Shown in pieces: positions 4,707 through 42,594 of a stretch of 64,000 bases of DNA. The stretch spans positions 1-64,000 of IMG/VR virus record IMGVR_UViG_2718218029_000001. The stretch is one strand, 5' to 3'. Source of the stretch: an uncultured virus (IMG/VR IMGVR_UViG_2718218029_000001). Lineage: Duplodnaviria; Heunggongvirae; Uroviricota; Caudoviricetes. The position numbers and the translations under genes were made by a program. The first letter of the stretch is position 1, and every line of letters starts with the position of its first letter. The notes beneath the pieces are model-generated. The model was not told the DNA's origin. It did no database searches and saw nothing but the letters and a program-made list of their open reading frames with translations.

Positions 4707-5059
4707 CTATGCAAATTGGTGGACGATCTGATTGATCTAAAAATTGTGTTGAATATAAAGATTCATGCGAGGTGGCTAAAATGGGCCCACCGTTGGTATT
4801 TTAAGTTGCACTAAGAGACGATAAACGGGACTTTTAATGAATGGAAGCAAGCTCCCAGGACCTAGCTCACAGTTTGCACCAAAGGCCTTGTTATCAATTG
4901 AGAAGAGCACACTGTACGGTTCATGATCAAAAAATATTTTGATTATGTCTACTAGTTTTTACCTTTGTTTTAGTACAAAAAAACGTGCGTCCCCTAGAAC
5001 TATTAGAAAGTTAATTTAAAATAGTCGAAGGATAATTAAAGGCATGCTATAATGCGGGG

Positions 5060-5324: not shown

Positions 5325-6042
5325 GATCAGACTGTCATTTATTAAAAAGTGCAGCGACTTTTTCGAAATACGATTTATCTAATAGATGCTCATTATGTTT
5401 CATCTTTTACACCTGTTTCCATTTGGAATTCAGATAAGAAATCATGCATATACTTTGTTCGACGACTGGCTTCTTGCTTTCCCGTTCTGGTATTCATTGA
5501 ACTTGCTAATTTCAGCAGCTTTTCATAAAAGTGATTGATGGTTGTACTTTTGTGATGGCGATAATCATCGTGTGTTTTGATTTTCTTCACTGATATTTTG
5601 GAATCATATATTTCCTGTCCAGCGTGCCCGCCGTAAGCAAATGCACGTGCTATGCCGATTGCACCTAGTGCATCAAGTCTATCAGCGTCCTGAACACATT
5701 TACCTTCGTTAGAAAGCTGATAATGGTGTTCAATGTTGTCAGCATATGACATATGTTGGATAATATCTAAAATGTCTTCTCTAGCCGGAGTTGTAATATT
5801 CTCATGGCTAAGTATAATTCGTACTCCTCTCAGTCTATTCTTTTTATCTGCAGTGACTTTTTAGTCTATGGTGTCATGCAAATAGCTAGCTGCTTTCACA
5901 ACATACAGACCAATATCAGTTTCATTTTTTTTAAAATCTTCTATATATTTTTTTTGAGCTAGCTTAGACACTCTTTGGGCATGAAGAAAATCATGCCCAG
6001 TTGGATCAAAGGCCATATTTTCTTTAGAAAATGATTTTATAT
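5325..6042 (-). pseudogene. Truncated, frameshifted duplicate of the HD phosphohydrolase gene plus the 5' end of the SAH-hydrolase-like gene
   Basis: Near-identical reverse complement of ~16140-16860; start codon missing; frameshifted. Confidence 0.85.
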
Positions 6043-6594
6043 ACTATATTTAATCTATTTCGTTTAGTATCCTTTACTATATATAATAAGGAGGCCTCTA
6101 ATGCTAGTTTTTCTGTCAACATCATTCATACCATCCAATGATAAGATGTGGTCGCGAGTTGGCATAAATAAAAATCAACAATTCCCGCCATTGGCAATAG
6201 ATTTAGGATGACGTTCCCTTAATTTTAAATGGTGTCCATGGTCTTAGTTAAATTTTTCTTGTTTCTGCCCAATTGATTCAATTCAGTAACTATGACAACA
6301 CCACCTTAACAAATCATAATTTGGATAATAGTATGTTCCATTTGAAAGCTAAGCCTTATAATTAGCATAGGGTTAATAGCTCTAATCAAAATACCCACAA
6401 AAGGCCTGCTCAACTAACAATTGAGTAGGCCCTTTGTAGTACAAATTAATCCTTATCACAACTAACCTCAATAGCACAACAGGTATAAATAGTGCTTAAA
6501 ATCCCTAAATAAATTTCTCTCACAACTGTTTAATAAAGCGGCAATCCCCGTCGTACGTGATTAATTAAACATTCAATTCTTAAAACACCTATTT

Positions 6595-12985: not shown

Positions 12986-14092
12986 TTAAAAATTATTTTT
13001 TATATAACTAGCCACATTTTCTTTGTCTGGAAATAAAGTAGCCTGGTTTATTTCCAATGATTGATTTAATTCGTTTAAAATTTGTTGCTTTTTTTCACCA
13101 GGAATTACTAATCTAATTGGCTCATTGTGTCCATTGTACAGAGATACTTTGTTATCAATATCATCATGAATATTTTCCAAGCTACATGATGTACCATCAT
13201 AAGGTTCAAAAAGGAAAAAACCACTTTGAGCTCGTAAGCGTTCATTATTAATTGAAGGTTCGACGAAAAATGGGTGAAGTAAAGTTCTAAAGTTGATTAG
13301 ATCAGCAAAATAACCAGTATCTCTTTTAATATCATGATACAGGCATTGCATTTCATAAGACTGATTTATTTCTTTATAGAAATCATTTAGTGAGTCATAT
13401 ACTTTTTGGTTTTCCTCAGAAAGTTGTTCATAATAGCCCTCTGGGAACTGCTTGACCAGATCCATGTACCAACTTTGGTATAAATGATTTTCATCTTCTT
13501 TCAACAAATCATCAATATTTTTGTTGAAAGAAGATATTTTTCTATAAATACTTTTCTTTTTTTCTTCGTCCATCAATGCTAATGTTGATAAGACTTCCAC
13601 GGTGTCACTGCGACTACTATAGTATGTGAAATCATCAATATTTTGTGTCTTGTTAGAAAAAAACATGGTAACTATCCCGTCTGTTTCATGTCTTTCAGAA
13701 TCAAGATGAGATTGACAGGCAAAATAAAGAGCGACAAGAGCATTGGTCGTTACATCTAATAACCTAGTTGGCAAGCCAAAATGTTGCATATAAGACAGGC
13801 GAGAAAAATTGTTTTCTAAATTGTTAAAATCGTTTGCGTACCTACGCATGTACTCATTAGTAAATGAATATTCATGGGTATATCCGGAGAGCTCTTTTTG
13901 TCTAAAGATGCTAGCAACGTTATTACTACTTTTGAAGTCATTTGACTGTCCTCTATAGAAAAATCGTGGTAGCAAACCTCTTCCATCAACTGTTACATTA
14001 GCTTTTATAGACTTTAGGGATTCTGCTTTTTTGCTTAAAAAACTATTTACAGATTGAATATTCAAAATAGAACCTCCTATAGATATAAGCAA
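12986..14092 (-). CDS. FRG-domain protein
   Basis: FYRGQS, MQHFGLPTRLLDVT..ALYFAC, NERLRAQSGFF motifs; low GC. Confidence 0.85.
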   Translation of the reverse strand: MLISIGGSILNIQSVNSFLSKKAESLKSIKANVTVDGRGLLPRFFYRGQSNDFKSSNNVASIFRQKELSGYTHEYSFTNEYMRRYANDFNNLENNFSRLSYMQHFGLPTRLLDVTTNALVALYFACQSHLDSERHETDGIVTMFFSNKTQNIDDFTYYSSRSDTVEVLSTLALMDEEKKKSIYRKISSFNKNIDDLLKEDENHLYQSWYMDLVKQFPEGYYEQLSEENQKVYDSLNDFYKEINQSYEMQCLYHDIKRDTGYFADLINFRTLLHPFFVEPSINNERLRAQSGFFLFEPYDGTSCSLENIHDDIDNKVSLYNGHNEPIRLVIPGEKKQQILNELNQSLEINQATLFPDKENVASYIKNNF

Positions 14093-14343
14093 GCACTCTG
14101 ATAAAATGAATCAATTACCGTATTTTTATGCTCAATGTTCTTACTAAGATGACTTACGTTAATACACTAATCCAGGTTAGAATGAAGTACACTACTGATT
14201 TAAAAATATGTTTCTAAAAGAATTATATCTCTGTATAATGAATCAAGTAGAGAAGTTAAGGCGGTGGCTATTTCCGATCGGAGGCGGTGCTTATGGTGTT
14301 AAACCTTTAAAGCCCATAAATCCTAACGAAAGGAGTAGCCTAA

Positions 14344-14448
14344 GTGTCCGTTTCGGACGCTTTACAATTAATGCTAGCTTTCGGTACATTTATCGTGGCC
14401 TTGATTGCATTAATTGTTGAGCTGATCAAAAGTCAGCAAAAAAAATAA
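14344..14448 (+). CDS. Putative holin-like type I toxin, 34 aa (MSVSDALQLMLAFGTFIVALIALIVELIKSQQKK)
   Basis: GTG start after AAAGGAG; single TM helix with basic tail; convergent antisense promoter. Confidence 0.75.
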   Translation: MSVSDALQLMLAFGTFIVALIALIVELIKSQQKK

Positions 14449-14561
14449 TCCGTCTTAGCTTTTGGCAGGGCTAACGGATTATTTAATCTATTATTAAACT
14501 TTGCCACCGTCTTAAACGGCTCTACATGGGAAGCCCTGTTCTAGCGGGGCTTCCTTTTTCT
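14440..14561 (-). ncRNA. Putative type I antitoxin RNA (locus 2)
   Basis: Minus-strand TGcTATAAT (-10 at 14568-14573); bidirectional terminator at ~14445-14485; homologous to the other two loci. Confidence 0.6.
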
Positions 14562-14672
14562 GTTTACATTATAGCATGGCTATAACGGACTTGCGACTAT
14601 TTTAAGTGTAGTTTCTCAAAGGCTAGAGAAACTATTGTTCGTTCTTGAAAATATGTAGGAGCAACGGCCTAA

Positions 14673-14719
14673 GAACCATATATAGTGGTATAATATGTAA
14701 TAAAAACTATATGTAGTGT
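14673..14719 (+). promoter_or_regulatory. Extended -10 promoter flanked by tandem NrdR-like boxes
   Basis: gaaccatatatagtgg (14673-14688), TGgTATAAT (14686-14694), aaactatatgtagtgt (14704-14719); boxes 31 bp apart. Confidence 0.7.
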
Positions 14720-14726
14720 TTGGAAG

Positions 14727-16127
14727 GTGCAATTCTTGGTTCAAGAGAAACACAACAAACTATTGAGCGCAATAATTTCGATTGGTCTTTTAAGCTTTTT
14801 AGGAATAGTGGTTGAAACAGCGTTAAACATAACCTTCCCACAATTAACAACGTATTTTTCTATACCTATCAGTCAAGTTCAATGGTTGACTACTGGATAT
14901 ATGCTAGTCTCAACTAGTTTGATTCCATTGGGTTCATTCTTTTTAAGACGGTTTCGTGTGGTAACTTTATTTAGAGTTTCGTGCTTAAGCTTTTTAGTCG
15001 GTACGTTGGTTGCAAGCTTTTCCAACAGCTTTAATTTAGTTTTGCTAGGCCGCTTATGTCAAGGCATTGCTGATGGAATCGCGTTACCGTTGATGTTTGC
15101 TGTCATACTAGATCAAGTGCCAAAGAAAAAAGTTGGCACTTTTATGGGGCTAGGTAGCTTAGTTATTGCCTTTGCACCAGCAGTGGGTCCCATATATGGT
15201 GGCATAATTCAGGACACATTCAATTGGCATTTTCTATTTATAATTTTAATACCAATTATTATGGTTACCTGGCTGCTTGGTGAGCTTAGCATTGAACAAA
15301 GTTCACCGGTTCATTACGTTCCCTTTGATGTCCGTGGGGGCATTTTCTTGGCCATTTTTTTGACAACGACGTTGATGTTTATTGTTAACTTGACTGCTAA
15401 CAGTAGCTCTTTTAAATTGTATTTATTTTTACTAGGAACAGCTTTTTTTAGTGGCTTACTTTTCCTTCTTAATGAGAAGCATAAGAGCCATAAATTGTTG
15501 GAATTAAGTCTCTTTAAAAACAAACGCTTTTTGCAGTTGTTAAGTGCTTTTTTTCTATTGCAATTCAGTTCTTTGAGTATGTCATACTTAATCCCTAATG
15601 TGCTACAAATACTTTTTGCCCAGTCACCTGGTTTGGTAGGTTTTCTAATTGCTCCTGCCGCTGTGATTGATGCAGTGCTATCGGTGGTTGCTGGTATTAT
15701 TTACGATAAAACTGCACCCCGCTTACCCATTATAAGTGGCTGTATAATCATTGGACTGACCTTTTTGGGCGCCAACCTATTTACACCAAGTATTGGCGGG
15801 CTGGTTTTAATATATATGCTTTTTATGGTGGGATTGAGCTTTAGCTACAGTAACATCATGACCTATAGTTTGTCTCAATTACCTGCTGGGTTAGTAAATG
15901 ATGGTAATTCGATTTATATGACGGTTCAAGCTTATTCAGGAGCAGTTGGAATTGCAATATCGTCCTCTATTGTTTCTTTATTGCAGAAACAACAAGGGAG
16001 TGTAATTTCAGGGACAAAATGGGGGTTAGCAATCAATTTCTTGATTTTGTTTTTTGTTGCCGTATTCACAATTTCTCTATGCTTGATAGCTTTACGAAAT
16101 AAAGTAATTAAAGGAGATAAAGAGTAA
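14727..16127 (+). CDS. MFS transporter, DHA2/LmrB-like
   Basis: ~14 TM; QWLTTGYML, GRLCQG, APAVGP motifs. Confidence 0.9.
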   Translation: MQFLVQEKHNKLLSAIISIGLLSFLGIVVETALNITFPQLTTYFSIPISQVQWLTTGYMLVSTSLIPLGSFFLRRFRVVTLFRVSCLSFLVGTLVASFSNSFNLVLLGRLCQGIADGIALPLMFAVILDQVPKKKVGTFMGLGSLVIAFAPAVGPIYGGIIQDTFNWHFLFIILIPIIMVTWLLGELSIEQSSPVHYVPFDVRGGIFLAIFLTTTLMFIVNLTANSSSFKLYLFLLGTAFFSGLLFLLNEKHKSHKLLELSLFKNKRFLQLLSAFFLLQFSSLSMSYLIPNVLQILFAQSPGLVGFLIAPAAVIDAVLSVVAGIIYDKTAPRLPIISGCIIIGLTFLGANLFTPSIGGLVLIYMLFMVGLSFSYSNIMTYSLSQLPAGLVNDGNSIYMTVQAYSGAVGIAISSSIVSLLQKQQGSVISGTKWGLAINFLILFFVAVFTISLCLIALRNKVIKGDKE

Positions 16128-16789
16128 TGAGTTTAGATGATATAAAATCATTTTCTAAAGAAAATATGGCCTTTGATCCAACTGGGCATGATTTTCTTCA
16201 TGCCCAAAGAGTGGCTAAGTTAGCTCAAAAAATATATACAGAAGATTTTAAAAAAGATGAAACTGATATTGGTCTGTATGTTGTGAAAGCAGCTAGCTAT
16301 TTGCATGACACCATAGACGAAAAAGTCACTGCAGATAAAAAGAATAGACTGAGAGAAGTACGAATTATACTTAGCCATGAGAATATTGCAACTCCGGCTA
16401 GAGAAGACATTTTAGATATTATCCAACATATGTCATATTCTGACAACATTGAACACCATTACCAGCTTTCTAACGAAGGTAAATGTGTTCAGGACGCTGA
16501 TAGACTTGATGCACTAGGTGCAATCGGCATAGCACGTGCATTTGCTTACGGCGGGCACGCTGGACAGGAAATATACGATCCCAAAATATCAGTGAAGGAA
16601 ATCAAAACACACGATGATTATCGCCATCACAAAAGTACAACCATCAATCACTTTTATGAAAAGCTACTGAAATTAGCAAGTTCAATGAATACCAGAACGG
16701 GAAAGCAAGAAGCCAGTCGTCGAACAAAGTATATGCGTGATTTCTTATCTGAATTCCAAATGGAAACAGGTGTAAAAGATGAGACATAA
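16127..16789 (+). CDS. HD-domain phosphohydrolase
   Basis: GHDFLH...LHD...QDADRLDALGAIGIARAF...NHFYEKLLKL; translationally coupled to neighbours. Confidence 0.92.
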   Translation: MSLDDIKSFSKENMAFDPTGHDFLHAQRVAKLAQKIYTEDFKKDETDIGLYVVKAASYLHDTIDEKVTADKKNRLREVRIILSHENIATPAREDILDIIQHMSYSDNIEHHYQLSNEGKCVQDADRLDALGAIGIARAFAYGGHAGQEIYDPKISVKEIKTHDDYRHHKSTTINHFYEKLLKLASSMNTRTGKQEASRRTKYMRDFLSEFQMETGVKDET

Positions 16790-17933
16790 TGAGTATCTAT
16801 TAGATAAATCGTATTTCGAAAAAGTCGCTGCGCTTTTTAATAAAGGGCAGTCTGATCCCCAAAAAATCCTTGTCGTAGAGCACGCCGTGATTAACAGTTT
16901 GGATTTTATAGACTATTTATGTGAACACTACGAAGTGTACTTTATACCCAAGCCCAAAAGTATTGATCGTAAAGTCCTTAAACATTTATCAAAGACTTGT
17001 ACAATATTAGATGTTTCTAGGAAAGAATTAGCAGGCGTTGATACACCTAACTTGATAAAGGAAATTGTCGGACAGGACACGTTTGCAATTATTGATATTG
17101 GTGGGTATTTTGTACCAAGATTAAGTGACATTCAGAAACAGTTTAAAGGTCAATTGGTTAAAATAATCGAGGATACGGAAAATGGCTACCAAAAGTATGA
17201 AGATAAGCTGTCCAATAATTCAATATCAGTCCCAATACTATCAGTGGCAAGAAGTTCTTTAAAAATTGAGGAAGATTTTTTGGTTGGACATGAGATTGTA
17301 GTCAAATCCGAAATCTTTTTAGCAGATTATGGAACGACGCTTTTAGGCAAGAAAGTACTAGTTATTGGCTATGGTAAAGTTGGCTCCAGTATAGCGGGTA
17401 ATTTAAGAAAACGTGGTGCAATAGTCATAGTTGCTGATAAAAGGGCAATACGATTAGCTAACGCATTAGCCCATGGGTACCAAATAACTAATGATATATA
17501 TACTGAGCTAATTGACGTTGATATTGTGTATATAGCTAATGGAGAGAAGTCTATTGATACTCTTCAACTAAAAAAATTGGATTTGAAACATACTTTATAT
17601 AGCTTTTCTGTAACTTCAGCGGACGATACTTTTAAAAATAGTCAAATGATCAACAAATTACCCCACTATGGACACAATGGTGGGTATAAAATTTTAAAAA
17701 CTAAAAGCAATAGGACTGTTATTCTAGCAAATTCAGGAAACGCAATTAATTTCACATACTCTATATCAACATTAGCTTCCTACGTCCAATTAACACAGGC
17801 TGAAATGGCAGTTATACTACAAAAAGACATTTCAGGTGAAGAAAATCAGGGAATTGTTGAATTAAATGAAAACGACAGAGAAAAAATTGCTAAAGAATGG
17901 TTGGCAGAGATATTTGAAGTTGTTAAAAGTTGA
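16779..17933 (+). CDS. Divergent S-adenosylhomocysteine hydrolase-like NAD-binding protein
   Basis: EH, IDIGG, EDTENG (cf. EETTTG), SSLK, GKKVLVIGYGKVG Rossmann motif and GNAINF (cf. GRLVNL), in SAHH order. Confidence 0.7.
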   Translation: MRHNEYLLDKSYFEKVAALFNKGQSDPQKILVVEHAVINSLDFIDYLCEHYEVYFIPKPKSIDRKVLKHLSKTCTILDVSRKELAGVDTPNLIKEIVGQDTFAIIDIGGYFVPRLSDIQKQFKGQLVKIIEDTENGYQKYEDKLSNNSISVPILSVARSSLKIEEDFLVGHEIVVKSEIFLADYGTTLLGKKVLVIGYGKVGSSIAGNLRKRGAIVIVADKRAIRLANALAHGYQITNDIYTELIDVDIVYIANGEKSIDTLQLKKLDLKHTLYSFSVTSADDTFKNSQMINKLPHYGHNGGYKILKTKSNRTVILANSGNAINFTYSISTLASYVQLTQAEMAVILQKDISGEENQGIVELNENDREKIAKEWLAEIFEVVKS

Positions 17934-18302
17934 ATTAAATAAAAAAGCTTAAAGAATTATACAAATAAGCTCTGGTTGCTACCGACAAAGAGATTTTAAG
18001 CTGTTTTTAGTTGCTGCTAAACTTTGATCGTAGTATTAAACAAAAATACCTTATTAAGCGCAACTTTCACTGAAACAGTTGATAACAATATTAAGATGAA
18101 ATTTGGTTTCCTCGTCAAAGTTTCTGTATAATAGATTAAGCAGGAAGTTTTCTACGTAAAGTCAAGTATATTAGGACTCTAAAGTTTTAATTTATGACAT
18201 ATTTGGCATTATTGCTTTAATTGAGGCGTTTTTTTCTAAATTAGGAGCATCACAAAGGGCTTCAAAGAAATTACTTCTTTGAAGTTAACTTAGGCTATAA
18301 TG

Positions 18303-19804
18303 AACCTGATCAATTAATTACGACAAAAGTCTTTTTGATTATTGTTGGCTACGTTGTAATCATACATTTGATCAGTGATAATCAAAATATATATCGTTCT
18401 AAGCAGTTTATGGATTGAAGCAATGGCAATTTTCTTGAACCCCTTCGTTTGAGAAAATTGCTTTTTTCGTTCATAGTAATCTGCTATATGACATGGACTA
18501 GTCTTAGCCGCTAGATCGATTTGTCCAATTGCACGATAAAGAATCTTCCGCGCAACGGCATTGCCGTGCTTAGAAATCCTTAAACTAGAATCTTTTTCCC
18601 CTGATTGATATCTACCTGGATCAATACCAACAAAAGCATTTATCTTGTTTGGATTACTGAATCTTCTAATGTCGCCTAATTCGGCTAGAATTCGGACATC
18701 AGTTATTTCAGCGATACCAGGAATGCTCATTAAGATTTCTAGATCGCGATTAGGCAAAGTCTTAGCTAATTTAATCATTTCCTCTGATCTCCGCTCGCGA
18801 TCAGCTGTAAGCCGTAATAATCTATTGGCGTAATAAACCACTTCATCACGCTCCGGGTCGTCTTGATCAACTGCTGGATAAGCTAAATCCGCGAGATGCT
18901 TAAGTTTAATAGCTAGTTTTTGAGCACGGTTAATACCATAACCTTTAAAATCTTTAATTTGCTTAGCGATGGTTGATACTTCAAGATTTCTAACATCTTG
19001 GCAGTGCGGAAAGAGCTCAACTAAATACCAGTAATTAACACCTCTAGAGTTATTGAAAATGGTTTCTAATTCTGGAAAAGTTAACTGTAAATATTTATGA
19101 AGTCGATTCTTGGAAGAAATAATATCGTGAGTTAATTCCTCATAAGCCCGACTTAAAGACTGCAATTGATGATAAACATCAGGCTCTTTTCGATTAGGTT
19201 GATGCTGATTTTGATCTTGAGCTAGTGCCAAATGGTAAGCATCATTACGATCGGTTTTATTGCGACGTAAGCCCTGATTAATTTCTTTCTTAGCCTTTAA
19301 AGGATTAAGAAGAACATAATCATAATCGTATTCATCTAAAAATCTAGTAATTCTGCGTGAATAAACTCCAGTTGCTTCTAAGATGATTTGTGGATGTTCG
19401 GCGTATTCTTTTAGATCTATCAACAGAGTTTTAAAGCCGATAGTATCGTTAGTGATCTTATATTCTCGTGTGGCGCCACTCTGAAGTACACAAACACTGG
19501 AATCACGACTACTTACATCTATGCCAAAGACAATGCTCATTTTTAAACCCTCCTAAATAGCTGTTAGTGGTTGGAACGTATTTACTAAGGTAATTATTTC
19601 TAATTTTCTAAACTGGACATCAAGTGTCGACATTCTTCGAAGAGAATACTAATTACTAAGTAAAACTGCCTGTTTTAAGGACGACGTCAAGCGTCTAAAC
19701 TTCTTACGGCATATAGTTTCACCACTATTTAAAGTTTAGAACAAAACTAAAATAGTGAATCAACTATCCCGTCGGATAATCGATTCACTATAAAGCTTAG
19801 AATG
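18303..19804 (-). mobile_element. IS110-family element (recombinase 18314-19540) with a ~260 bp non-coding upstream end
   Basis: DEDD motif (GIDVS, LEATG, KTDRND) and YQSG Ser; flanked by AATG at 18299-18302 and 19801-19804; no TIRs. Confidence 0.9.
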
Positions 19805-19887
19805 TTTTAAGGGCGGTGGCTGTCTTTTCCCTTGCGAGGTGAGGCCCATGGGAACATGGAATAATCTTCAGGAAGGTTTCACAGTCA

Positions 19888-19977
19888 ATGAGCGTCTTCC
19901 AGACACTCTCGTTGATGTTGCTGTTTGGCACGTTTTTAATCGCGCTCCTCAGCTATATCGACAAGCACCACAAATAA
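19888..19977 (+). CDS. Putative holin-like type I toxin, 29 aa (MSVFQTLSLMLLFGTFLIALLSYIDKHHK)
   Basis: Hand-translated; GGAAGG SD; TM helix with basic tail; convergent antisense unit. Confidence 0.78.
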   Translation: MSVFQTLSLMLLFGTFLIALLSYIDKHHK

Positions 19978-20100
19978 AAAAGCCGCCCTGCGTAACTTTG
20001 GCCAGTTACAGGGTAGCTTAATGCTGTCTTATTAACTTCGCCACCGCCTTTGAAGCGGCTTGCGTGGGAAGTCCTGTTTTCGGCGGGGCTTCCTTTTTCT
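19972..20100 (-). ncRNA. Putative type I antitoxin RNA (locus 3)
   Basis: Minus-strand TGcTATAAT (-10 at 20107-20112); overlaps the 3' end of the toxin transcript. Confidence 0.6.
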
Positions 20101-20132
20101 GTCTCCATTATAGCATGTCCCTTAAAAACTGG

Positions 20133-20730
20133 CTAACGTTTTAGGCTTTGATCAGGTTCAGAATCTGGTTGTTTAATTTCTGGATTCTGTTTAGCAAATG
20201 CTTTCAGTTGTTTTTGAGTTCGATCACTAATTTCTTGGTGCACATCGTTTAACTGATTTTTTAATTGCGCTTTTTGTTGTGGACTAGTTGTTTGTTGAAT
20301 TTGTTGTTGCAAGCCTTGATAGGACTTATTCAGTGACTGGGCTGCTAGCTTTTTTAAATCGTGCTCAGGTCCTTCTTGTGCTTCTTGCAAGCCTAATTAT
20401 TTGGTTAAGCCATCGCTAAGCTCAATCACTTTGTTGCTAACTTGCTGGATTTCACTTAAAGCACTATGGATCACAGCTGTATCTTTAGCCCAGGTAGCCA
20501 CATAACCGAGTGAATAGTTACTGGTATCAACGCCAATATTTTGCATGGCAACATATGCGACCGCTTCGGCCTGGGTTTCCTGATAGGCTCGTGGCCGATC
20601 TTTAAAGGCTGATTTTAAGCCGTGTAGCTGGCTATGCGCATATTCATGATATAACGTCTTCAATTTTAAAGCATTATCGGATTCATCACCACCAATAACA
20701 ATTTCATTAGTGCTGGGTTGAAAATACCCT
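20133..20730 (-). pseudogene. C-terminal remnant of an LtrC/ArdC-like metallopeptidase-domain protein
   Basis: LYHEYAH..ETQAEAVAY..YSLGYV; in-frame stop at 20397-20399; 5' part deleted. Confidence 0.7.
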
Positions 20731-21430
20731 TAAAACCAGGTCATAGACTTGTTGCTGTAATTTAGGCAAGCTGGCTAGTTTCTCTTTCGTCGGCACGACT
20801 TTAGTCATAATAATGGCGTAGTGTTCTTCAACCTTCTTTCCATTAACATAGCGCTTATTCGGGGCGATATTGGTTAAAGCGACTGGCTTAGAGACTAACC
20901 CCAGATACTTAGGCAGATTAGCCCCTAAATAATCAAATTCTTCATCAGTGATATAAGCACAATCGGTGCGGGGATAACTGAGCAGTTTGTCTTCGTATAA
21001 ACTCTGAATGGCCGCCAAAGTCTGGCTGGCACTGGCATGATAACGTTTATTCATGGCACTCTGGAGACTGGATAGTGAGAATAGTTGGGGACTAGCACGC
21101 TTTTTAGCCTGGTTTTGAATGCCCTTGATTAAACCAGCCTGTGAGCCTTTCTGAACGTGTTTAGCTTGCATGAATGCCATTAGCCCTGTTTCGTCTTTAA
21201 ATCGCTGATAGGGGCCTAATTTTGCGACGAATTCTTGCTAATTAGCAAGAATTTCAGCATTTAGTTCAAAATAGGGTTTCGGATTAAAGGTTTTGTTTAC
21301 CTGGTCTCTTTGATAGACCATACACAAGGCTGGCAGCTATACGTAACTAATCGAGCATACCAAATTTTTCTCAATATAAAATACATTATGGGCTACCATT
21401 CATACCAATTAACCAGTCGCTAATTTTGTG
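20707..21430 (-). pseudogene. Internal fragment of a conjugative type IA topoisomerase (TopB-like)
   Basis: PQLFSLSSLQ, LYE.KLLSYPRTD, EHYAII motifs; truncated at both ends. Confidence 0.8.
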
Positions 21431-27412: not shown

Positions 27413-27745
27413 CTAGACCATTCCCTTAAATTCAACTGTCTCATTCTTTGTATTAACCAAAAACTTACCAACACTCCCCTGATACTTCACGGATACTTTA
27501 AAAGAATACTTGTAATTTACCCGAGTATATCGAATACTACTAATTCTCCCCTGATACCCTTGCTTACGCAAAACTCTTTTTACTTGATCTCTCTGCTGAT
27601 TTGTAATTCTTGCAGAACTCCGATAGATTGTCTTCTTAACGATCACATCTGGATTCAATGGAACAATGTAATCCTTACATTCCAACAATTCCACCAACTT
27701 TCTTTTTTTCTTTGGAATTTGACTTGACGGGTTACGGTTTTCCAT
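27413..27745 (-). CDS. Hypothetical basic protein downstream of the structured RNA locus
   Basis: 110-aa K/R-rich ORF; no recognised motif; start overlaps the predicted RNA 3' helix. Confidence 0.4.
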   Translation of the reverse strand: MENRNPSSQIPKKKRKLVELLECKDYIVPLNPDVIVKKTIYRSSARITNQQRDQVKRVLRKQGYQGRISSIRYTRVNYKYSFKVSVKYQGSVGKFLVNTKNETVEFKGMV

Positions 27746-28385
27746 TCAGTTTAGAGGGAGTGACGTTTTGAGCGCAGAATTGTTCCCTGGAATCAGCTAT
27801 TTGGAATAACTGAACCAGAGTACAATTCTACTACTAAAAGTTTCCCCTTAGTTCGTCGGTCGTTAACGCCCGTCGCTTGTCTGTACAATTGCGGTATTGC
27901 TACCACCACTCATTATAAACCTACGTTTTCGGTTTAACCTACTAAAAAACGCCCTAGTAGGCGTTGGCAATACGTATTTATGTTTGTTCGATCACCAACT
28001 AATCAGTGGCACCAAGCCGAAGCTTCGTTTTACCACCCGCGCCGTTAATGGTCGCGCTCACCATTCACCACCCAGCCGTACAGATGACCTTGTTGTGGTA
28101 TAGCCAGACTTATTGAAGTCGCACTGGCAAACGTGTCCCCTTGGATTTAGACCCCAGCTTGTCCCCTAGGGCTTTAAAAATCGCACCGGCCATGATATAA
28201 TAGTCAGTAAATGAGTTGACTTTTGTGTGGCGCTCACCGATGCCAGTCGGTGGGTGTTTTTTTTTATGCAGTTTTTTAGGTATTACTTCTTTTGAACTAC
28301 TGACAGTGTCCCCCATGATTCACAGTTAGTACAGCAAACGGTGGAAATAATGTTAAAAACACATCATATAATAGGACTGTCAATA
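27720..28385 (-). ncRNA. Putative large structured replication-associated RNA (copy A)
   Basis: TTGACA (28416-28421)-18-TATAAT (28392-28397) promoter; GC-enriched and stem-rich; motif-level homology and covariation with 38224-38925. Confidence 0.6.
28208..28265 (+). ncRNA. Putative counter-transcribed antisense RNA (ctRNA A)
   Basis: TGaTATAAT at 28193-28201; terminator cgctcaccga..tcggtgggtg plus T9. Confidence 0.65.
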
Positions 28386-28434
28386 TCAATGATTATAGCC
28401 CTTTCATAGGATATCTGTCAACAATTATATTTAA

Positions 28435-28645
28435 TTTCCCTTTTTCCCTTTATCTATTTATCCCTAAATAGAATTATCCCTAAATAGAAATATCCCTAAA
28501 TCCCTTTTTCTATTTAGGGATATTTTTAATTCCCATTATAACAGTGTTCTCAGTCGATAAGTATCCCTTTTTCCCTTTATCCCAATTTCTATATATCCTT
28601 AATTCTATATATCTAAATAACTATTTAGGGAAATTTCCCTTTCAC
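28435..28645. repeat. Centromere-like (parS) repeats upstream of parA
   Basis: Multiple direct and inverted TATCCCTAAATAG / TTCCCTTT units. Confidence 0.7.
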
Positions 28646-28692
28646 TATTAAATTGTGGTATACTAATTAAAAATCAATTGGAGGTCGTTGTT

Positions 28693-29553
28693 ATGGATAT
28701 TCCAGACGTAGTAAAGGCTATACAGTCTCGTGATGAGGCATTAACCATTGTGATTGGTAATCAAAAGGGTGGCGTGGGAAAAACAACTAACACGTATCTC
28801 ATCGCTTATACCTTAGCTAAAATGGGAATACATACGTTGGTTGCAGACTTAGACCCACAAGCCAACGCCACTAAAACACTAATGTTAACGAAAAGTCAGC
28901 AGGAAGATACCGTGTACTCAATTAAAAAAACTCTGATGGTAGGCGTACAGGAGAAAGATCTAACAGACTTACCAGTTAAGATAATGGATAACCTTGACCT
29001 AATTCCTTCATATATTGATTTCCAAGATTTCACGAAATATTTATATCAGAATACGAATAATGAGTACGAAGAAACACATCTGTTGGAGCCCTTGTTTAAT
29101 CCATTGAAGAAGAAATATGATGTAATTCTGTTGGATGTGCCACCATTTAGTATTGAGATTACCCGTAATGCTGTTATCTTCTCAGACTTTGCACTTATCA
29201 GCTTGCAAACACACGATGATAGTCTATCCGGTGCAGAAGAGTATGTGAATACCCTTTCTAAACTTCAGCAAGAGTATCAGCTAGATATAGAGGTAATTGG
29301 TATCTTGCCAATGCTTCACGATGCCCGTAACGGTGTCGATCAGACAATCATACAATCTGCTAAGGATGAGTTTGGAGAAGAAAATGTATTCACAAATATT
29401 GTTACTCAAATGGCCCGGATTAAACGATTCCCAATTAATGGAATTACCGATAAGGACCGCTTCGATAAGCGAGTGTTAGACAAGTACCAGCAAGTTACCG
29501 ATGAGTTATTAAGCCGGATTGGCTTATTTATAGATGATAAGGAGGCCAAGTAA
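28693..29553 (+). CDS. parA: ParA/Soj Walker-type partition ATPase
   Basis: NQKGGVGKTT, DLDPQANAT, LLDVPP motifs. Confidence 0.93.
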   Translation: MDIPDVVKAIQSRDEALTIVIGNQKGGVGKTTNTYLIAYTLAKMGIHTLVADLDPQANATKTLMLTKSQQEDTVYSIKKTLMVGVQEKDLTDLPVKIMDNLDLIPSYIDFQDFTKYLYQNTNNEYEETHLLEPLFNPLKKKYDVILLDVPPFSIEITRNAVIFSDFALISLQTHDDSLSGAEEYVNTLSKLQQEYQLDIEVIGILPMLHDARNGVDQTIIQSAKDEFGEENVFTNIVTQMARIKRFPINGITDKDRFDKRVLDKYQQVTDELLSRIGLFIDDKEAK

Positions 29554-29554
29554 G

Positions 29555-29854
29555 ATGCCAAGTAAAAAGCCTAATATTCTTCAACGAAGGGTTACCGGAG
29601 CGGTAAAGCCATCAGAAGAGTACCATGCAACAGATAATGCTACGAAAAAAGAGAATAAATCTTCCTCTATGCCAAAAAATCAGAAAAAATCCCTTAAGGT
29701 ATCCGCAGAGACTTACAAGGATATGAAAGTCCTGAAGACAATTGAACATGTTAGCTTCGACTACGAGATTATCCAGCTTCTTATTGACCAGTATTACAAG
29801 GATATGACCGAGGAACAACAGCGCAGGTATACCGTATTGCGGGAGAATATGTAA
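29555..29854 (+). CDS. Small centromere-binding partner (type Ib par)
   Basis: Directly downstream of parA; flexible N-terminus and RHH-like C-terminus. Confidence 0.65.
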   Translation: MPSKKPNILQRRVTGAVKPSEEYHATDNATKKENKSSSMPKNQKKSLKVSAETYKDMKVLKTIEHVSFDYEIIQLLIDQYYKDMTEEQQRRYTVLRENM

Positions 29855-36931: not shown

Positions 36932-37655
36932 ATGAAGATCAAAAACCTTGTATTATCATCAACTGCTGCATTAGCTTTATCGCTATCTCAACAACGTTGC
37001 CAACGCTGATACTTATACTGTTAAGGCCGCGATACTGTTTCAGCAATTGGCCCAAGCTCACAACACTTCAGTTTCAGCCATTGAAAAAGGCAAACAAGTT
37101 AGCTAATGTTAACTTAATCTTCATTGGTGATAAGCTTGAAGTCAATGGTACTACTACAAACAACCACGACTTCTGCTGCTACAAGTGCTGCACACAATCA
37201 GCAACTACCAAGCTACTTCTTCAGCTGCTTCAACAACCTCAACGACTTCAACACAGACGACTCAACAAACGACCACGACACAATCATCAGCTCAGACTAG
37301 TCAAACTCAAGCTCAACCGAGCCAAGCTAGCCAGACCCAATCAAGTCAAACACAAACTAGCAAACCTGCTGCTCAGACGACGACTCAAACTAGTTCAACA
37401 TCAAACTATAGCAACAATGGTTCTGATAGTGCTGCTAAGGCTTGGATTGCTGGTAAAGAATCTGGTGGTTCATATTCTGCTCGTAACGGTCAATACATCG
37501 GTAAGTACCAATTAAGTGCTTCATACTTAAACGGTGACTACTCCGCTGCCAACCAAGAACGTGTTGCTAACAGTTATGTTGCTTCACGTTATGGTTCATG
37601 GAGCAACGCCAAGAGTCACTGGCTTGCTAATGCTGGTACTAAAAAGCCACTCTAA
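36932..37655 (+). CDS. LysM / aggregation-promoting-factor-like secreted protein (several frameshifts, probably assembly errors)
   Basis: Signal peptide, LysM (NLIFIGDKL), S/T/Q-rich linker and Apf-like C-terminus AKAWIAGKESGGSY..GKYQL. Confidence 0.8.
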
Positions 37656-37774
37656 ATTAATAAACAAATGCAAAGTTGCGGATCATTTCTGATTCGCAAT
37701 CTTTTTTATACTATATTAAATCTGTGCTGAAGCACGTGTGTCCCCCACCAATACCCATTATAAAGTTACTCAGT

Positions 37775-37775
37775 T
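37775..37775. other. Contig junction (N)
   Basis: Single N with an abrupt change of content. Confidence 0.85.
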
Positions 37776-38178
37776 NTACGAAAAAACCCTCAAAAGACAG
37801 CAATGATAGATATGTAATTGACGATAGTGTTGTCAATGCTATTCGTAAATACTATGCAAACAGTAACACCAAGGCTAAACAAGAAAAAGCGTCACCAATT
37901 GACGATAAAGTTCTTGATATAATGCGACGTCAACTAGACGAAAAGGATAGACAAATTGAAAAGCTAACTCAATTACTTAACCAGCAACAACAACTTAATT
38001 TGTCTACTAACCGTCAAAACGAAAAACTACTTGGTACCACTACGAACAACCCCCTCTCACAGGACGATATCCCCTTAAAAGCGACGATACAGACGTTTTA
38101 AAGCCTACCGAGGGTAATTATAAGGGAGTAGACACTAAGACGCCTAAAAGGGGCTTGTTTGGTTGGTTAAGACGTTAA
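37776..38178 (+). CDS. C-terminal part of a DUF536-like (OrfX-type) HTH/coiled-coil plasmid protein; N-terminus at 49307-49392
   Basis: LDIMRRQLDEKDRQIEKLTQLLNQQQQL; frameshifted tail ending KGLFGWLRR. Confidence 0.7.
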
Positions 38179-38223
38179 AAATACCCCTTTGTCATATTAT
38201 CGGCAAAGGGGTATAATACTGTT

Positions 38224-38925
38224 TGTAACTAGATTAAATAGACAAAAAAATTCCCTCGGAGCCTAAACCGGGGGAACACAATAACTTCATCAAGTTTATG
38301 TGTTCATTTTACCTACTATTGTAAGATTTTTCAAGTAGGTAGAGTTGAATTTTTCTGGATCACGGGGAGCCAAGCCTCGTTACTAGAGTGGCAACATTCT
38401 AGCCAAGCCAACTAATCTTACCTTTCGAGGACTGACAGCCGGTTAGCGGAGCTAATGAAACAAGTCGACAGGTCAAGTGAGAGCCGCCGCTATAAACTCC
38501 CACTAGGAATTAACCTATACTTGTATTTAGGTTGGTTCCGAACGGTGGCCCCACGCACGGGCGGGCCGGTAAAGCAGTACGAAAGTACAGGGCTATTACG
38601 CAAGGCCAGTGATCCAAACAACTAAAAATAAATGATTGCTGGCACCTATAAAGGGTGCTTTTTTTATAGGCTAAATTAGTTAGGCTAATCTACAAGCGCA
38701 ATAGTAACAATACAAGTGTTTTTACGTGACGGTGATTCGTGACGAACAACAAAAAGTTTTCTTCTTCGCAAAACAAGGGGAAAACTATATCCCGCTCAGG
38801 TTCAAGCGTTCTGAACAGCAAAGGGCAAGTGCACTAAACTGGTTTGACCTTGAGGGTTAAGAGCACGTGATTGCGTGCAGATAGGTTAGACTAGGGTGTT
38901 ATTAATGTACTAGCCGTCACGTAGA
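38224..38925 (+). ncRNA. Putative large structured replication-associated RNA (copy B)
   Basis: TTGTCA (38189-38194)-17-TATAAT (38212-38217); no long ORF; many helices, e.g. tacgtgacgg/ccgtcacgta; homologous to copy A. Confidence 0.65.
38244..38299 (-). ncRNA. Putative counter-transcribed antisense RNA (ctRNA B)
   Basis: TTGAAA (38329-38334)-17-TAAAAT (38306-38311); terminator hairpin 38251-38276 plus U7. Confidence 0.7.
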
Positions 38926-39281
38926 CCACAAGACGTTAAGAACTAACTACTAACGACAGACACACTATCAATATTATATAGTCTCGGCCAGGCGGTTTCT
39001 AAGCCGACATATTTCGGACAATTATAAATAGAACGTCCTATCACAAAGTAACTTACATACGTAGAATAATACAATTTCACAAGTGTAAAATAATGGATAT
39101 ATTAACATTTACAATTTACTCTATTTTCACAAAGTATCGTTATCGCATGATATTGGTAAATATATAGCCTTATATCGTTGATATAACAACGTTTTTAACA
39201 CTTCACAAAGTTTAGCTTTGAATACTAAGCGTTATGTTAACTAGCATAAAATAGTGCTATAATGAAAACTGACTCTAGTGG

Positions 39282-39740
39282 TTGCAACTAACGTTAATAA
39301 TGCTATACTACGTTTGTGCTGTATGACATGACATTGCACACTACTTTCAGTAACATACCGCAAAATAAAAAGGGTCACCCTTAACTGGATAGGCCTTTTT
39401 ACTATGTCAATTTTAATGTTATTATAATAATATGTGCTATCTATATTATCTTGGGGGAGCGGCTATCTGTTTAGGTAGTCGCTTTTTAATATTGCAATTT
39501 AATTAGAATGATCTAAAATAAAGTTGTCCCATTAGTCGGGACTCATGGTATTCCGTTTCGAAGTGACAACTTCTTAGTGAGCACTTACCCGGGTGTTCAC
39601 TTTTTTAGTATTGCACCAAGTTTGCATAGTGCTATAATCATGCTTGTGTCTCCGACATGACACAAACACCTACTTCATAATAGTGTGACGATTCTAGCAA
39701 AATCATAAAGGCCCGTCATTAATTTGATAGGCCTTTTTGT
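39282..39740 (+). ncRNA. Tandem array of four promoter-sRNA-terminator units
   Basis: TTGCAN-16-TAnAnT promoters at 39282, 39492 and 39611, plus TATAAT at 39423; each followed by a hairpin and U-tract within 55-100 nt. Confidence 0.55.
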
Positions 39741-40002
39741 GTGCTAACAAGCAACCTAAGCAACTTTATACGCTAAAAGGTGTAAAAACTAGTTAAAAGC
39801 TGTCAATTCCTTATGCTCCCACGTTTTGCTCGTCCGCTACCATTGACAGCAAACAGTTAGTTTTTTTTGAATCTTAACAAGAATCTAACTGCTATATTCG
39901 TTTTTAAGGGCCTTATTTCTCGTTTCTAGTGATTTTGAGACTGTCTATATATAAATTTATACCAAAGCAAAAATAAAAAGCCCTTAGCAGGCTTTTAGAG
40001 GG

Positions 40003-40218
40003 CTAAATAACGAAGCCAGGACGATTAATAATATCTTCTTGTCTTTTTTGCAAAACATAAGTATACAGGGAATCATACAAATTCTTTTTGATCTCGTCAG
40101 GTTCATTGAAAGAAGCTTCAAACAATTCTTGAATATCAACTTGCCAAGGATCAGCAAGCATTTCATCAATTGGTTTTAATACTTTCTTTTCGTCCATCTT
40201 AATGACTCCTAACATCAA
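40003..40218 (-). CDS. Small hypothetical plasmid protein
   Basis: AGGAG SD before MDEKK (ATG near 40197); acidic, ~64 aa. Confidence 0.6.
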   Translation of the reverse strand: MMLGVIKMDEKKVLKPIDEMLADPWQVDIQELFEASFNEPDEIKKNLYDSLYTYVLQKRQEDIINRPGFVI

Positions 40219-40440
40219 AATAATGCTTTCAGTTTAAATTCACAGATCTTACAGCACCGTTATTCAAAATTTGTTACCAAGCTTATAAAGATTATCTGCA
40301 CAAAGCAATTAAACAATTTTGGCTTTAAAACAGCGTAATCTGCAACACTTTTTAAGTATTTAAAACATAACAATCTTAGTTTAGGTGCAAACAAATGCTC
40401 AATTAAATAACGAGAAAAATTGATTGTATGGTTATCAGCA

Positions 40441-40555
40441 GACCGAGTGAAACGAGGTCAATGCGCACTTACACATAGAATTTATTCTATGTTGTGCTAG
40501 GCCCATTTAAAATCCTGTATCAGAAGTCGCCGTTGGCGACAACAAAATCAAACCA
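40441..40555 (-). other. Orphan MOBQ-type oriT
   Basis: Reverse-complement homolog of 23520-23632 with the same GTAAGTGCGC core but a different inverted repeat. Confidence 0.75.
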
Positions 40556-41144
40556 ATTTACCCAAAATCAATTTGTTCAACATGTTTTCTGTACTTGCTT
40601 GATCCAAGCCCAAATAAGCTAAAGTCATTGATTCACTTGAGTGATTTAGTAAGTGCATTACTAGGTCAATATTGTAATTAGATTGCGTGTAAACGCGATA
40701 AGCCCCGGTTTTGCGCATCGTATGAGTACCTAGATAATTAATTCCTAACAGATTGCCAACTTTACTCATAATTTTGTAGAACTGTTTTTCAGTGATATGG
40801 CGTTCTGGGTGTTGACTGGAAGGAAAGAGCCATTCAGATTCAAGCTTATGATCAAGCAGCCATTGACGATACAATAAGAGCTCTGTTTGAACTGGTTTAA
40901 GATACAAGGTATTAGGCTTACCCGTTTTTCGGTCGTGAATGAGCGCATTTTGTTTAATAGAACCGTCCGGATTAAAAATATCGGTTTGTTTTAAGCGCAT
41001 GACATCACTGACTCGCAACAGTGTCGCTTTGCCAACTTGAAAAACTGTATAGTTACGCCGGCCAGCTTTAAAGTTGTTGAGTAAGGTATCTTGAACCTCC
41101 TTGAGAACATTTGAATCTTTGATGGGTAAGACAACTTGTTGCAT
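40548..41144 (-). CDS. Tyrosine recombinase (catalytic-domain-only, resolvase type)
   Basis: LLRVSD, GTHTMRKTG, LNHSS..TLAYLG (R-H-R-H-Y); start MQQVV at 41144. Confidence 0.9.
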   Translation of the reverse strand: MQQVVLPIKDSNVLKEVQDTLLNNFKAGRRNYTVFQVGKATLLRVSDVMRLKQTDIFNPDGSIKQNALIHDRKTGKPNTLYLKPVQTELLLYRQWLLDHKLESEWLFPSSQHPERHITEKQFYKIMSKVGNLLGINYLGTHTMRKTGAYRVYTQSNYNIDLVMHLLNHSSESMTLAYLGLDQASTENMLNKLILGKLV

Positions 41145-41229
41145 GTAAATGACCTCCAGTAAGAATATTTGCATTACGTATCTACATGGGATATACTTGG
41201 CTTGCAATAATAATTTAGGAGGGGAAAAT

Positions 41230-41502
41230 ATGGAACTTATTAAAGAACAAACACGCTTAGCAAAGTGGGGAAACTCGAAAGCTGCTAGAATTCCTAGCCA
41301 AATTATTAAACAACTGAAATTAGATGATAACCAAGATATGACAATAACCATTGAAAATGGATCAATTGTTTTAACACCAATAAAAAAGAACCCAACCAAT
41401 ATTCACGAACTATTTAAGGATTGGCAAGATGACGGGAAAAGGATCACGAGCTTGATTGGGGAAAGTCAGAAGGTAATGAACTTCAATGGTAAGCCAAGGT
41501 GA
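41230..41502 (+). CDS. pemI: AbrB/MazE-type antitoxin (PemI-like); C-terminal frameshift likely artefactual
   Basis: LAKWGNSKAARIP motif; the canonical end HELDWGKSEGNELQW is in a shifted frame. Confidence 0.85.
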   Translation: MELIKEQTRLAKWGNSKAARIPSQIIKQLKLDDNQDMTITIENGSIVLTPIKKNPTNIHELFKDWQDDGKRITSLIGESQKVMNFNGKPR

Positions 41503-41830
41503 TATATTTTATGTTAACTTTAATCCAAGCCGTGGTCATGAACAGATGAATAAGCGACCAGCGATTGCGCTAAGCAATGATCTAGTCTGTCAGACAAGTA
41601 ACATGACGATTGTGGCTCCAATTAGCAGTACCAAGCGTAATTTTCCAATGTATCATCGACTAACTAGTAGTCAAACAGTATATGGAAAAGTATTATTAGA
41701 TCAAACCATAGCCTTAGATTTACGGGCAAGACATGTCACTGATGAAACTATTGTCGATCATGTATCGCGTGAAGAACTAGAAGAAATAATCACTTTGTAC
41801 AAATTATTGTTTAGTATTGATGACAAATAG
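41486..41830 (+). CDS. pemK: PemK/MazF endoribonuclease toxin
   Basis: QGDIFYVNFNPSRGHEQ..RPAIALS motif. Confidence 0.92.
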   Translation: MVSQGDIFYVNFNPSRGHEQMNKRPAIALSNDLVCQTSNMTIVAPISSTKRNFPMYHRLTSSQTVYGKVLLDQTIALDLRARHVTDETIVDHVSREELEEIITLYKLLFSIDDK

Positions 41831-41966
41831 AAGAAGTTGTTTTTGGCATATAATGACAAATAACCCCCAATATCTACATTATAGATATTGGGGGTTATTC
41901 TTTCAACGTTTTCGAGGGGCGATTTGTAAGTTATAGGCCCTAAAATGCAACACATAGTTTTCTATA

Positions 41967-42401: not shown

Positions 42402-42424
42402 ACATCCTCCTTAAAATTAATTAA

Positions 42425-42503
42425 GAAAGATGGACAACCAAGGAGGCAGGTTACTGATAGCTTCGCTATGTTCGGACTACCAACCGAACTGTGTTTTTAC
42501 TTT
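42425..42503 (-). promoter_or_regulatory. yjdF RNA motif (azaaromatic riboswitch)
   Basis: Minus strand aaaacacagttcggttggtagtccg...tcagtaacctgcctccttggttgtcc, directly upstream of yjdF. Confidence 0.85.
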
Positions 42504-42594
42504 CTACTGCTAGTTTAACTCAAATACCCCATTCAGAATAGTTTGCTTAAAACTCTGAATGGAATATTTGGTAATTATAGTTCCTAAAGGTTTC

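Follow-up and report, generated by a model that had tools for sequence, protein, structure and literature searches.

The locus

The element described here lies at 38181..38925 of a 64,000-nucleotide (nt) stretch of DNA, called the window below, which is positions 1 to 64,000 of the IMG/VR virus record IMGVR_UViG_2718218029_000001. An earlier note on this DNA had proposed a candidate RNA-based replicon here (copy B) and a relative elsewhere in the window (copy A). The analysis finds a promoter-driven long RNA, a convergent antisense RNA and, within the long RNA, a conserved structured core; on balance, the element is best read as the replication module of a plasmid that has no replication initiator (Rep) protein. 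The record is filed as a provirus, and the genes around the element are plasmid genes: insertion sequence (IS) transposases, ParA, RelB, PemI/PemK, an integrase and an OpuA transporter. By gene content, window 1-64000 is a plasmid cointegrate in which at least two replicon modules are accompanied by IS elements and toxin-antitoxin pairs.

Directly upstream of the element is a DUF536 gene (37676..38101, plus strand; Pfam PF04394, E = 5.6e-6), whose 3' end is 73% identical to positions 5397-5590 of the L. plantarum plasmid p256 and which is the counterpart of the gene preceding the p256 origin. Indeed, a blastn comparison of p256 with the window shows the two to be colinear over window positions 37973-41942. 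The element stands between the DUF536 gene and a 3' block shared with p256, the place that the origin takes in the p256 backbone, and the integrase and PemI/PemK genes follow downstream. An even simpler setting is provided by NZ_CP065816.1, a complete circular plasmid of 2,863 bp: 2,278 bp of it match window positions 37782-40059 at 96% identity, and the remainder holds a helix-turn-helix (HTH) gene. The only open reading frames (ORFs) of at least 60 amino acids (aa) in this plasmid encode the DUF536 protein and the HTH regulator, which is of the Cro/CI type; no known Rep family scores above threshold.

The element is ORF-free and GC-enriched, as the earlier note had remarked: no ORF longer than 56 aa lies in its region, none in or after it is conserved among 14 family members, and the GC fraction is 0.43 over 38001-39000 and 0.50 over the core domain at 38538-38672, compared with 0.34-0.40 in adjoining DNA. 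A coding role for the 56-aa ORF at 38455-38625 was considered and rejected, since this frame is broken by frameshifts or absent in relatives.

A long RNA and a convergent antisense RNA

Two near-consensus promoters face each other at the coordinates first proposed for them. The long-RNA promoter (38189..38217, plus strand; TTGTCA-17-TATAAT) has 11 of the 12 consensus bases and a predicted start near 38224; the antisense promoter (38306..38334, minus strand; TTGAAA-17-TAAAAT) has 10 of 12. The promoter scan returned 9 promoter-like sites, against 3.6 ± 1.9 in shuffled sequences. Among relatives, given here by locus number or plasmid name, the long-RNA promoter recurs at the equivalent relative place in L040, L044, L046, L060, L071, L073 and pLEUM1, and equivalent convergent promoters are present in copy A (by scan) and in L004-type elements, L073 and pLEUM1 (by eye).

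The predicted antisense RNA, or counter-transcript, runs from its promoter to a T-run (38244..38300, minus strand; about 57 nt, read from 38300 to 38244) and folds at -15.3 kcal/mol (z -2.1) into a small 5' hairpin followed by a terminator hairpin and a U-run; its ends are predicted, not mapped. One mismatch in the stem left this terminator unflagged by a simple terminator scan. The target is the first two of three hairpins in the 5' leader of the long RNA (38224..38345, plus strand), which folds far better than expected (-33 kcal/mol, z -4.0; 0 of 200 shuffles are as good). B-type leaders differ from one another in the hairpin loops. The short terminated antisense RNA of the earlier note thus stands as a prediction, and the likeness that it drew to ColE1 RNAII/RNAI is supported: a long RNA whose 5' part is the target of a short antisense RNA is a layout kept across divergent members. 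A 13-bp palindrome, ATACCCCTTTG...CAAAGGGGTAT (38181..38214), encloses the -35 box of the long-RNA promoter and may serve as an operator or as the terminator of the DUF536 gene.

A structured core RNA held by covariation

Beyond its leader, the long RNA is predicted to contain the structured core (38353..38672, plus strand), here termed class I and present in copy B in its long form. RNAalifold, run on a MAFFT alignment of 11 full cores, predicts 78 pairs, of which 44 are compensatory. The P2 hairpin (38361-38381, plus strand; loop GGAGCCAAG) is universal in the family, with this loop or GGRGACAAG; P3 (38383-38402, plus strand) has a GCAA loop, which is GCAA or GUAA across the family; and P4 is either capped by UUCG, as in copy B, or lengthened by a 35-nt insertion. 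The P5 loop (GCCRCY) covaries with a GGYGG that directly precedes an invariant GGUAAA (GCCGCC and GGCGG in copy B), a pairing that is likely a pseudoknot. The core also holds helix Pa and helix Pb, the latter capped by GAAA, UUCG or GUCA across the family and by GAAA in copy B. Both GNRA and UUCG tetraloops are therefore represented.

The 3' domain (38538..38672, plus strand), made up of Pa, Pb and two further helices, P-T and X, is the basis of the covariance model R1 (135 positions, 28 pairs) and scores 156.6 bits; the full-core alignment above is independent of the R1 alignment. Among 31 distinct sequences aligned to R1, 24 of the 28 pairs change on both sides, yet 99.0% of the cells are paired. 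The covariation score of 0.519 compares with 0.198 in shuffles, of which 0 of 500 are as high, and with 0.04-0.12 when the partners are slid. Summed over pair types, G-U cells (about 71) far outnumber non-pairs (8), so the folded strand is that of the long-RNA promoter. Folding energy is uninformative: the minimum free energy z-score of the core is only about -1.8 on either strand, and covariation was therefore used as evidence instead. The many helices described earlier are borne out on these grounds and not by folding energy.

No family of Rfam 15 matches, whether in a scan of the window at gathering thresholds, in a search of copy B at E <= 10 (chance-level hits only) or in a search of copy A at E <= 1; ROOL, GOLLD, ARRPOF, GEBRO, PAGEV and the counter-transcript (ctRNA) families give no covariance-model match to the window, B or A, which deals with ROOL and ARRPOF, the two known motifs that the earlier note had singled out. 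The class I core is a real structured RNA. Its covariation, its fold on the promoter strand, its tetraloops and the lack of an Rfam match support the view, put forward in that note, that it represents an undescribed family of large noncoding RNA (ncRNA).

Two details concern copy B itself. A closing helix, GGAUCAC/GUGAUCC, seen in the single-sequence fold was dropped: it does not covary and is disrupted by changes in L013 and L037, of which the one in L037 improves P-T. At 38562-38566, copy B has GGGCGGGCC, in contrast to the GGGGCGGGC of most relatives and of all four RNA-seq assemblies, and the Pa stem shifts by one base.

A terminator and its competitor helices

Between the core and the 3' region stands an intrinsic terminator, T, which the earlier note had overlooked (38641..38666, plus strand; GGCACCT/GGGTGCT followed by 7 U, with the hairpin placed by the terminator scan at 38641-38659). 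In 30 of the 31 distinct family sequences, the U-run directly follows a perfect hairpin, whose stem covaries (CACC/GGTG versus CGCC/GGCG). The long-range helix P-T (38605-38614 with 38634-38643, plus strand; 9 of 10 pairs change on both sides) ties the terminator to the core and, through its 3' strand, takes up 3 nt of the terminator stem. Helix X (38645-38652 with 38663-38670, plus strand; CCUAUAAA with UUUAUAGG; 5 of 8 pairs change on both sides) joins the T loop to sequence past the U-run. Because P-T shares nucleotides of the T stem and X, which uses the T loop, excludes T, T and the combination of P-T and X are mutually exclusive conserved conformations. They would make up a switch between termination and read-through.

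The 3' region

Transcription past T would enter a conserved 3' region (38671..38840, plus strand), in which GTGACGG, CGACGA and a pyrimidine run are followed by a purine run, AAAACAAGGGGAAAAC, at 38781-38796. In most relatives the element ends at AAAGTCAAG, and the sequences and genes beyond differ; in the window this usual end is replaced by a junction to the block in common with p256 (38841..39050, plus strand; p256 6207-6422, 83% identity).

Is the RNA then more than a switch in front of a DNA origin? The element could be a replicon whose RNA has a regulatory role alone: core and terminator, with the antisense RNA, would attenuate transcription into a 3' DNA origin, where host DnaA or PriA/DnaD/DnaB would initiate with neither an RNA primer nor an RNA scaffold. 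The canonical terminator and its covarying competitor helices do look like an expression platform, and the 3' region is kept more in sequence than in structure, positions 38753-38798 being 91% identical between L. plantarum and Leuconostoc plasmids despite diverged cores. Antisense attenuation nevertheless has no need of a 300-nt fold that includes tetraloops and a likely pseudoknot and is kept across genera; pT181 and pIP501 attenuate with short leaders. Nor was a DnaA-box cluster recognised by eye, although no dedicated scan was run. A purely regulatory role therefore seems unlikely, if a serious competitor.

The earlier note had given much weight to a 10-bp long-range pair. The inverted repeat TACGTGACGG (38723-38732, plus strand, and 38914-38923, minus strand) exists and is exact, with 0.03 expected per window, but it is not a conserved RNA feature, because its 3' arm sits in the p256-like block, which is absent from the B-type elements L013, L018, L024, L037 and L043, and because the counterpart claimed for copy A, gacggg/cccgtc, recurs only in elements with the 3' module of A (L044, L056) and is absent from L073, L071, L004 and L045. 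The pair was overrated and, as an RNA feature, is rejected. About 70 bp around the GTCACGTAGACCAC arm (38881-38950) have 86-90% identity with unannotated DNA of the L. plantarum phages LP65, Bacchae and ATCC 8014-B2.

Further downstream, 39040-39210 is AT-rich, carries four TCACAA(A)GT repeats and is 94% identical to p256 6409-6573; it might be an array of protein-binding sites close to the origin. On the minus strand, 39790-39850 matches the Rfam 'Bacillus-plasmid RNA' RF01691 (69.2 bits); this RNA is also present in the 2,863-bp plasmid (L001 207-267, 71.7 bits), not in p256, and, lying within the 2.3 kb common to that plasmid and the window, may belong to the maintenance or replication unit.

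Copy A and the exchange of modules

Copy A (27725..28421, minus strand) repeats the same plan: a long-RNA promoter with all 12 consensus bases (28421-28392), a leader, a short-form core (28171-27936), a terminator (27965-27948) and a 3' region that ends at CCCGTCAAGTC. Its antisense unit (28173..28266, plus strand) consists of a promoter with a TG-extended TATAAT (28173-28201) and a predicted 60-nt RNA (28207-28266; fold z -3.4) that carries a 13-bp terminator hairpin (28229-28258). R1 scores copy A at 58.9 bits (E = 1.5e-16), which makes its 3' domain homologous to that of B; the short form keeps this domain and P2, with a hairpin loop common to B, and lacks about 70-100 nt of the middle. It had been claimed that the antisense regions of A and B are unrelated and their cores conserved. 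The first part stands, as the leader modules are 58% identical, which is background; the second holds for the homologous 3' domains, but the cores are only 56% identical overall.

Across the family, leader/antisense modules fall into three types that are freely combined with long and short cores. This shuffling, together with the loop differences within a type, is the pattern expected of copy-control and incompatibility determinants; it suits the coexistence of two copies in one molecule and fits the earlier suggestion of two compatible plasmids of one family.

In larger plasmids, the element is divergent from an adjoining ParA gene and accompanied by iteron-like repeats. One of them, of 42.8 kb, has no Rep listed among its 31 features. 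The repeats of copy A (GGGATA / TATTTAGGGATA; 28440-28640) lie between its promoter and the divergent ParA gene (28678-29553), which is accompanied by a PrgO-like ORF (29534-29854), and are probably a partition site; other family members have different repeats in their place.

Distribution of the family

By blastn, the B region is found in 292 PLSDB plasmids, of which 154 cover at least 80% of it, and the A region in 432; the p256 core is found in 49. Diverged members were collected from PLSDB, from a pattern scan of GTDB genomes and with R1, which matches 23 of 151 sampled Lactobacillaceae genomes and the Leuconostoc plasmid pLEUM1 (65.3 bits). The range extends to Levilactobacillus, Pediococcus, Loigolactobacillus and Leuconostoc. 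For one member, L073, blastn finds nothing in PLSDB.

The p256 origin and a second RNA class

How firmly can a replication role be read from the p256 backbone? A 1,690-bp plasmid composed of the p256 'miniori' and a cat gene alone replicates, and the p256 origin needs no plasmid protein, according to the part of the source consulted (PMC3526553). p256 and its twin pTC7 have no replication gene, again as far as the consulted text goes (PMC8346141). The 'miniori' primer given in the former source (PMC3526553, in part) maps to p256 6229-6247, in the counterpart of the 38841-39050 block. Judged from this primer site and the plasmid size, the minimal origin of p256 would span about 5560-6250 and be the positional equivalent of window 38150-38880. 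We take the minimal replicon of p256 to be about 0.7 kb.

The p256 origin (L003 5590-6250) has a promoter of its own, a convergent antisense unit, a terminator before the core and a conserved region of about 330 nt. A structured RNA, class II, is found there and also in a pTE15-like L. reuteri plasmid (L082 1640-2300) and in L084-L086; in 5 sequences, 33 of its 65 predicted pairs are compensatory, and plasmids of L. brevis, L. reuteri, L. panis and L. fermentum conserve the region. In p256 and the pTE15-like plasmid alike, class II comes with its own promoter and antisense unit and with a terminator ahead of the core, and R1 matches none of the 5 class II loci; two unrelated folded RNAs therefore hold the same place in Rep-less replicons. 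L082 resembles pTE15 in repeats and motifs: an exact search of the loci for a 23-nt part of the pTE15 'cer-like' motif found none, and a near-match in L082 was noticed by eye. In p256 itself, R1 gives a weak match at 4884-4980 (23.7 bits, E = 1.8e-5), upstream of the DUF536 gene and outside the origin, which may be a class I remnant.

Papers up to 2026 cite p256 only as a low-copy theta origin, and plasmids of its type have a low copy number (PMC4247782). No RNA, antisense unit or fold is described for these replicons in the literature examined, which did not extend to subscription papers such as the 2005 p256 paper.

Transcript depth and two further explanations

In the RNA-seq run X6, contig depth is 14,000-21,000 over 38304-38571 and 2,121 over 38516-38866; two contigs over 38202-38338 have 320-380 each, the DUF536 gene has 86-282, and 39041-39375 has 5-26. 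Missing cover at 38907-39040 is not evidence. These figures give a hint of core RNA building up, perhaps in processed form.

A core that is apparently abundant on its own and that ends at a terminator could be a stable plasmid ncRNA with some other role (maintenance, host interaction or a target like that of a type I toxin-antitoxin system), the true origin lying nearby, for instance in the AT-rich repeats at 39000-39400; the smallest natural plasmid also retains 39000-40059. The family as a whole speaks against this: L013, L018, L024, L037 and L043 are without the p256-like block and yet keep the element to AAAGTCAAG, A-type elements have different downstream DNA and genes, no toxin-like ORF is conserved among the 14 members, and the element is the sole conserved feature beside ParA in plasmids with no Rep listed. 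An ncRNA with another role is thus quite unlikely.

Could the fold instead act as single-stranded DNA (ssDNA), whether as a transfer origin, as a single-strand origin or as a site where the primosome assembles? Weinberg et al. (2017; PMC5737381, in the part consulted) raise the possibility of an ssDNA role for plasmid motifs, and 353 of the 432 plasmids retrieved with the A region are typed mobilizable. The fold, however, lies between a promoter and a terminator that share its strand, its GNRA/UUCG loops and many G-U pairs are traits of RNA, and its depth in an RNA library (X6) is high; moreover, the 2,863-bp plasmid has no rolling-circle Rep gene, and 134 of the 292 plasmids found with the B region are typed non-mobilizable. 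An ssDNA role is very improbable.

A model for replication without an initiator protein

What picture emerges from the promoters and antisense unit, the fold, the terminator and competitor helices, the shuffled modules, the wide distribution and the absence of a known Rep gene? The explanation preferred here, held with somewhat more confidence than doubt, is an RNA-dependent, antisense-controlled, Rep-less theta replicon. The element would be the replication module of an initiator-protein-free, theta-type replicon, which in the window has come to lie inside a plasmid cointegrate. Its near-consensus promoter would drive a long RNA that is the sole specific replication factor of the plasmid. The antisense RNA of about 57 nt would bind the 5' hairpins (the first ~80 nt) and cut the amount of productive RNA, setting copy number and incompatibility. 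The next ~300 nt, the class I fold, would act either as a pre-primer that stays hybridised and is processed in the 3' region or as a recruiter of host replication proteins. The choice between T and P-T/X probably gates whether transcription stops or reads through into the 3' region, and DNA synthesis would begin in that conserved region with its purine-rich AAAACAAGGGGAAAAC tract.

Several points weigh against this model. We infer from context that the element is the origin, that its RNA is required and how priming proceeds; the replication role rests on that context, and no deletion analysis of the class I core was found in the literature. A terminator separates the core from the supposed initiation region, which would not be so in a simple ColE1-type pre-primer. 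The abundant species in X6 is apparently the core alone, which is no less compatible with a stable trans-acting RNA than with a transient primer; these data are contigs only, three of the four runs gave one long uninformative contig, and contig depth is a poor measure. The 2.3-kb common region also contains the AT-rich repeats at 39040-39210 and the RF01691 RNA, and either could be, or contribute to, the origin. In p256, only the flanks of the origin core align with the window by blastn, and R1 has no match in 5590-6250; a direct sequence link to p256 was accordingly rejected. PLSDB gene tables are incomplete, which makes 'no Rep listed' weaker than 'no Rep', and the covariation of the 3' domain was scored on an alignment (A4) fitted to R1, which favours structure.

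A broader proposal is that in Lactobacillaceae plasmids an 'initiator RNA' replaces the initiator protein. At least two unrelated RNA classes (I, and II in p256 and pTE15-like plasmids) would be served by exchangeable antisense modules; the folded RNA would recruit or position host enzymes, and read-through, governed by P-T/X versus the terminator, would leave an RNase H-resistant purine-tract primer, AAAACAAGGGGAAAAC, much as the retroviral polypurine tract does. This wider scheme is tentative, conceivable but doubtful.

Comparison with known replicons

An analog in layout is ColE1, with RNA II and RNA I: both systems have no known Rep protein, a long RNA from a strong promoter directed toward the origin and a short antisense inhibitor against its 5' part, and in both the folding of the long RNA is presumably decisive. 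In contrast to ColE1, class I shows no sequence or Rfam similarity to RNA I/RNA II, has Gram-positive hosts and a conserved fold with tetraloops and covariation, and includes an internal intrinsic terminator in its transcription unit; the p256 type is also low-copy. In the rep systems of pT181, pIP501 and pAMbeta1, the rep mRNA is attenuated by a counter-transcript against its leader, with a terminator downstream. Class I shares the counter-transcript against the leader and the downstream terminator, but no rep ORF follows the element (no ORF is conserved there among 14 members), the downstream genes vary or are absent, and about 350 nt separate the terminator from the target, a span that includes a large conserved fold.

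p256 of L. plantarum NC7 is similar in backbone and position and likewise has a promoter, a convergent antisense unit and a structured stretch of about 300 nt that is free of ORFs; it differs in the sequence and fold of the core and in having a strong terminator before the core, where class I has one after it. pTE15 (Limosilactobacillus reuteri) and pLS20 (Bacillus, 'class E') are Rep-less minireplicons of 1.1-1.3 kb. In the part of the source consulted (PMC9743546), the pTE15 minireplicon is 1.3 kb long and without Rep, adjoins ParA-like repB and repC, as copy A adjoins ParA, and, unlike ColE1, is not amplified by chloramphenicol; the pTE15-like plasmid L082 has a class II (p256-type) core, not class I. 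ARRPOF, GEBRO and PAGEV are likewise long structured motifs (223-349 nt), from plasmid regions on which replication depends or with which it is linked; ARRPOF is found in a gene-free 1-kb region sufficient for replication (Weinberg et al., 2017; PMC5737381, in part). Unlike class I, which also has an antisense unit and a terminator switch, they come from other taxa, and, as described above, their covariance models find no match here.

RNA-dependent, antisense-controlled replicons are a known kind; the new part is the undescribed RNA family. The Rep-less theta replicons of p256 (2005) and pTE15 (2022) have been termed 'a new type of replicon', with no mechanism given in the papers examined. The p256 replicon was reportedly described by Sorvig et al. 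in 2005, and its origin is the basis of the pSIP and pCD256 expression vectors, which it drives. The present layout gives a sister replicon of p256 a testable anatomy (promoter, antisense RNA, ~300-nt covarying RNA and terminator switch) and may explain the copying of a widely used, poorly understood Lactobacillus plasmid type; class I is far more widespread than p256, and its counterpart in p256 and the pTE15-like plasmid is a second, analogous RNA class. Should the RNA prove to be the initiator, Gram-positive bacteria would have their own equivalent of ColE1, built around a far more elaborate RNA, and the engineering of food-grade bacteria could draw on the family for protein-free natural origins that are compatible with one another and whose copy-control modules can be swapped.

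Other features of the window

Upstream of the DUF536 gene, an ORF at 37185-37655 (plus strand) matches an aggregation-promoting factor (NCBIfam NF052398) with 164 bits, just below the cut-off of 170. The Rfam scan of the window also found two RatA antitoxin RNAs and an rli28-like RNA, at 14225-14571 and 20020-20110, and, at 42414-42510 on the minus strand, a yjdF (azaaromatic) riboswitch upstream of a DUF2992 gene.

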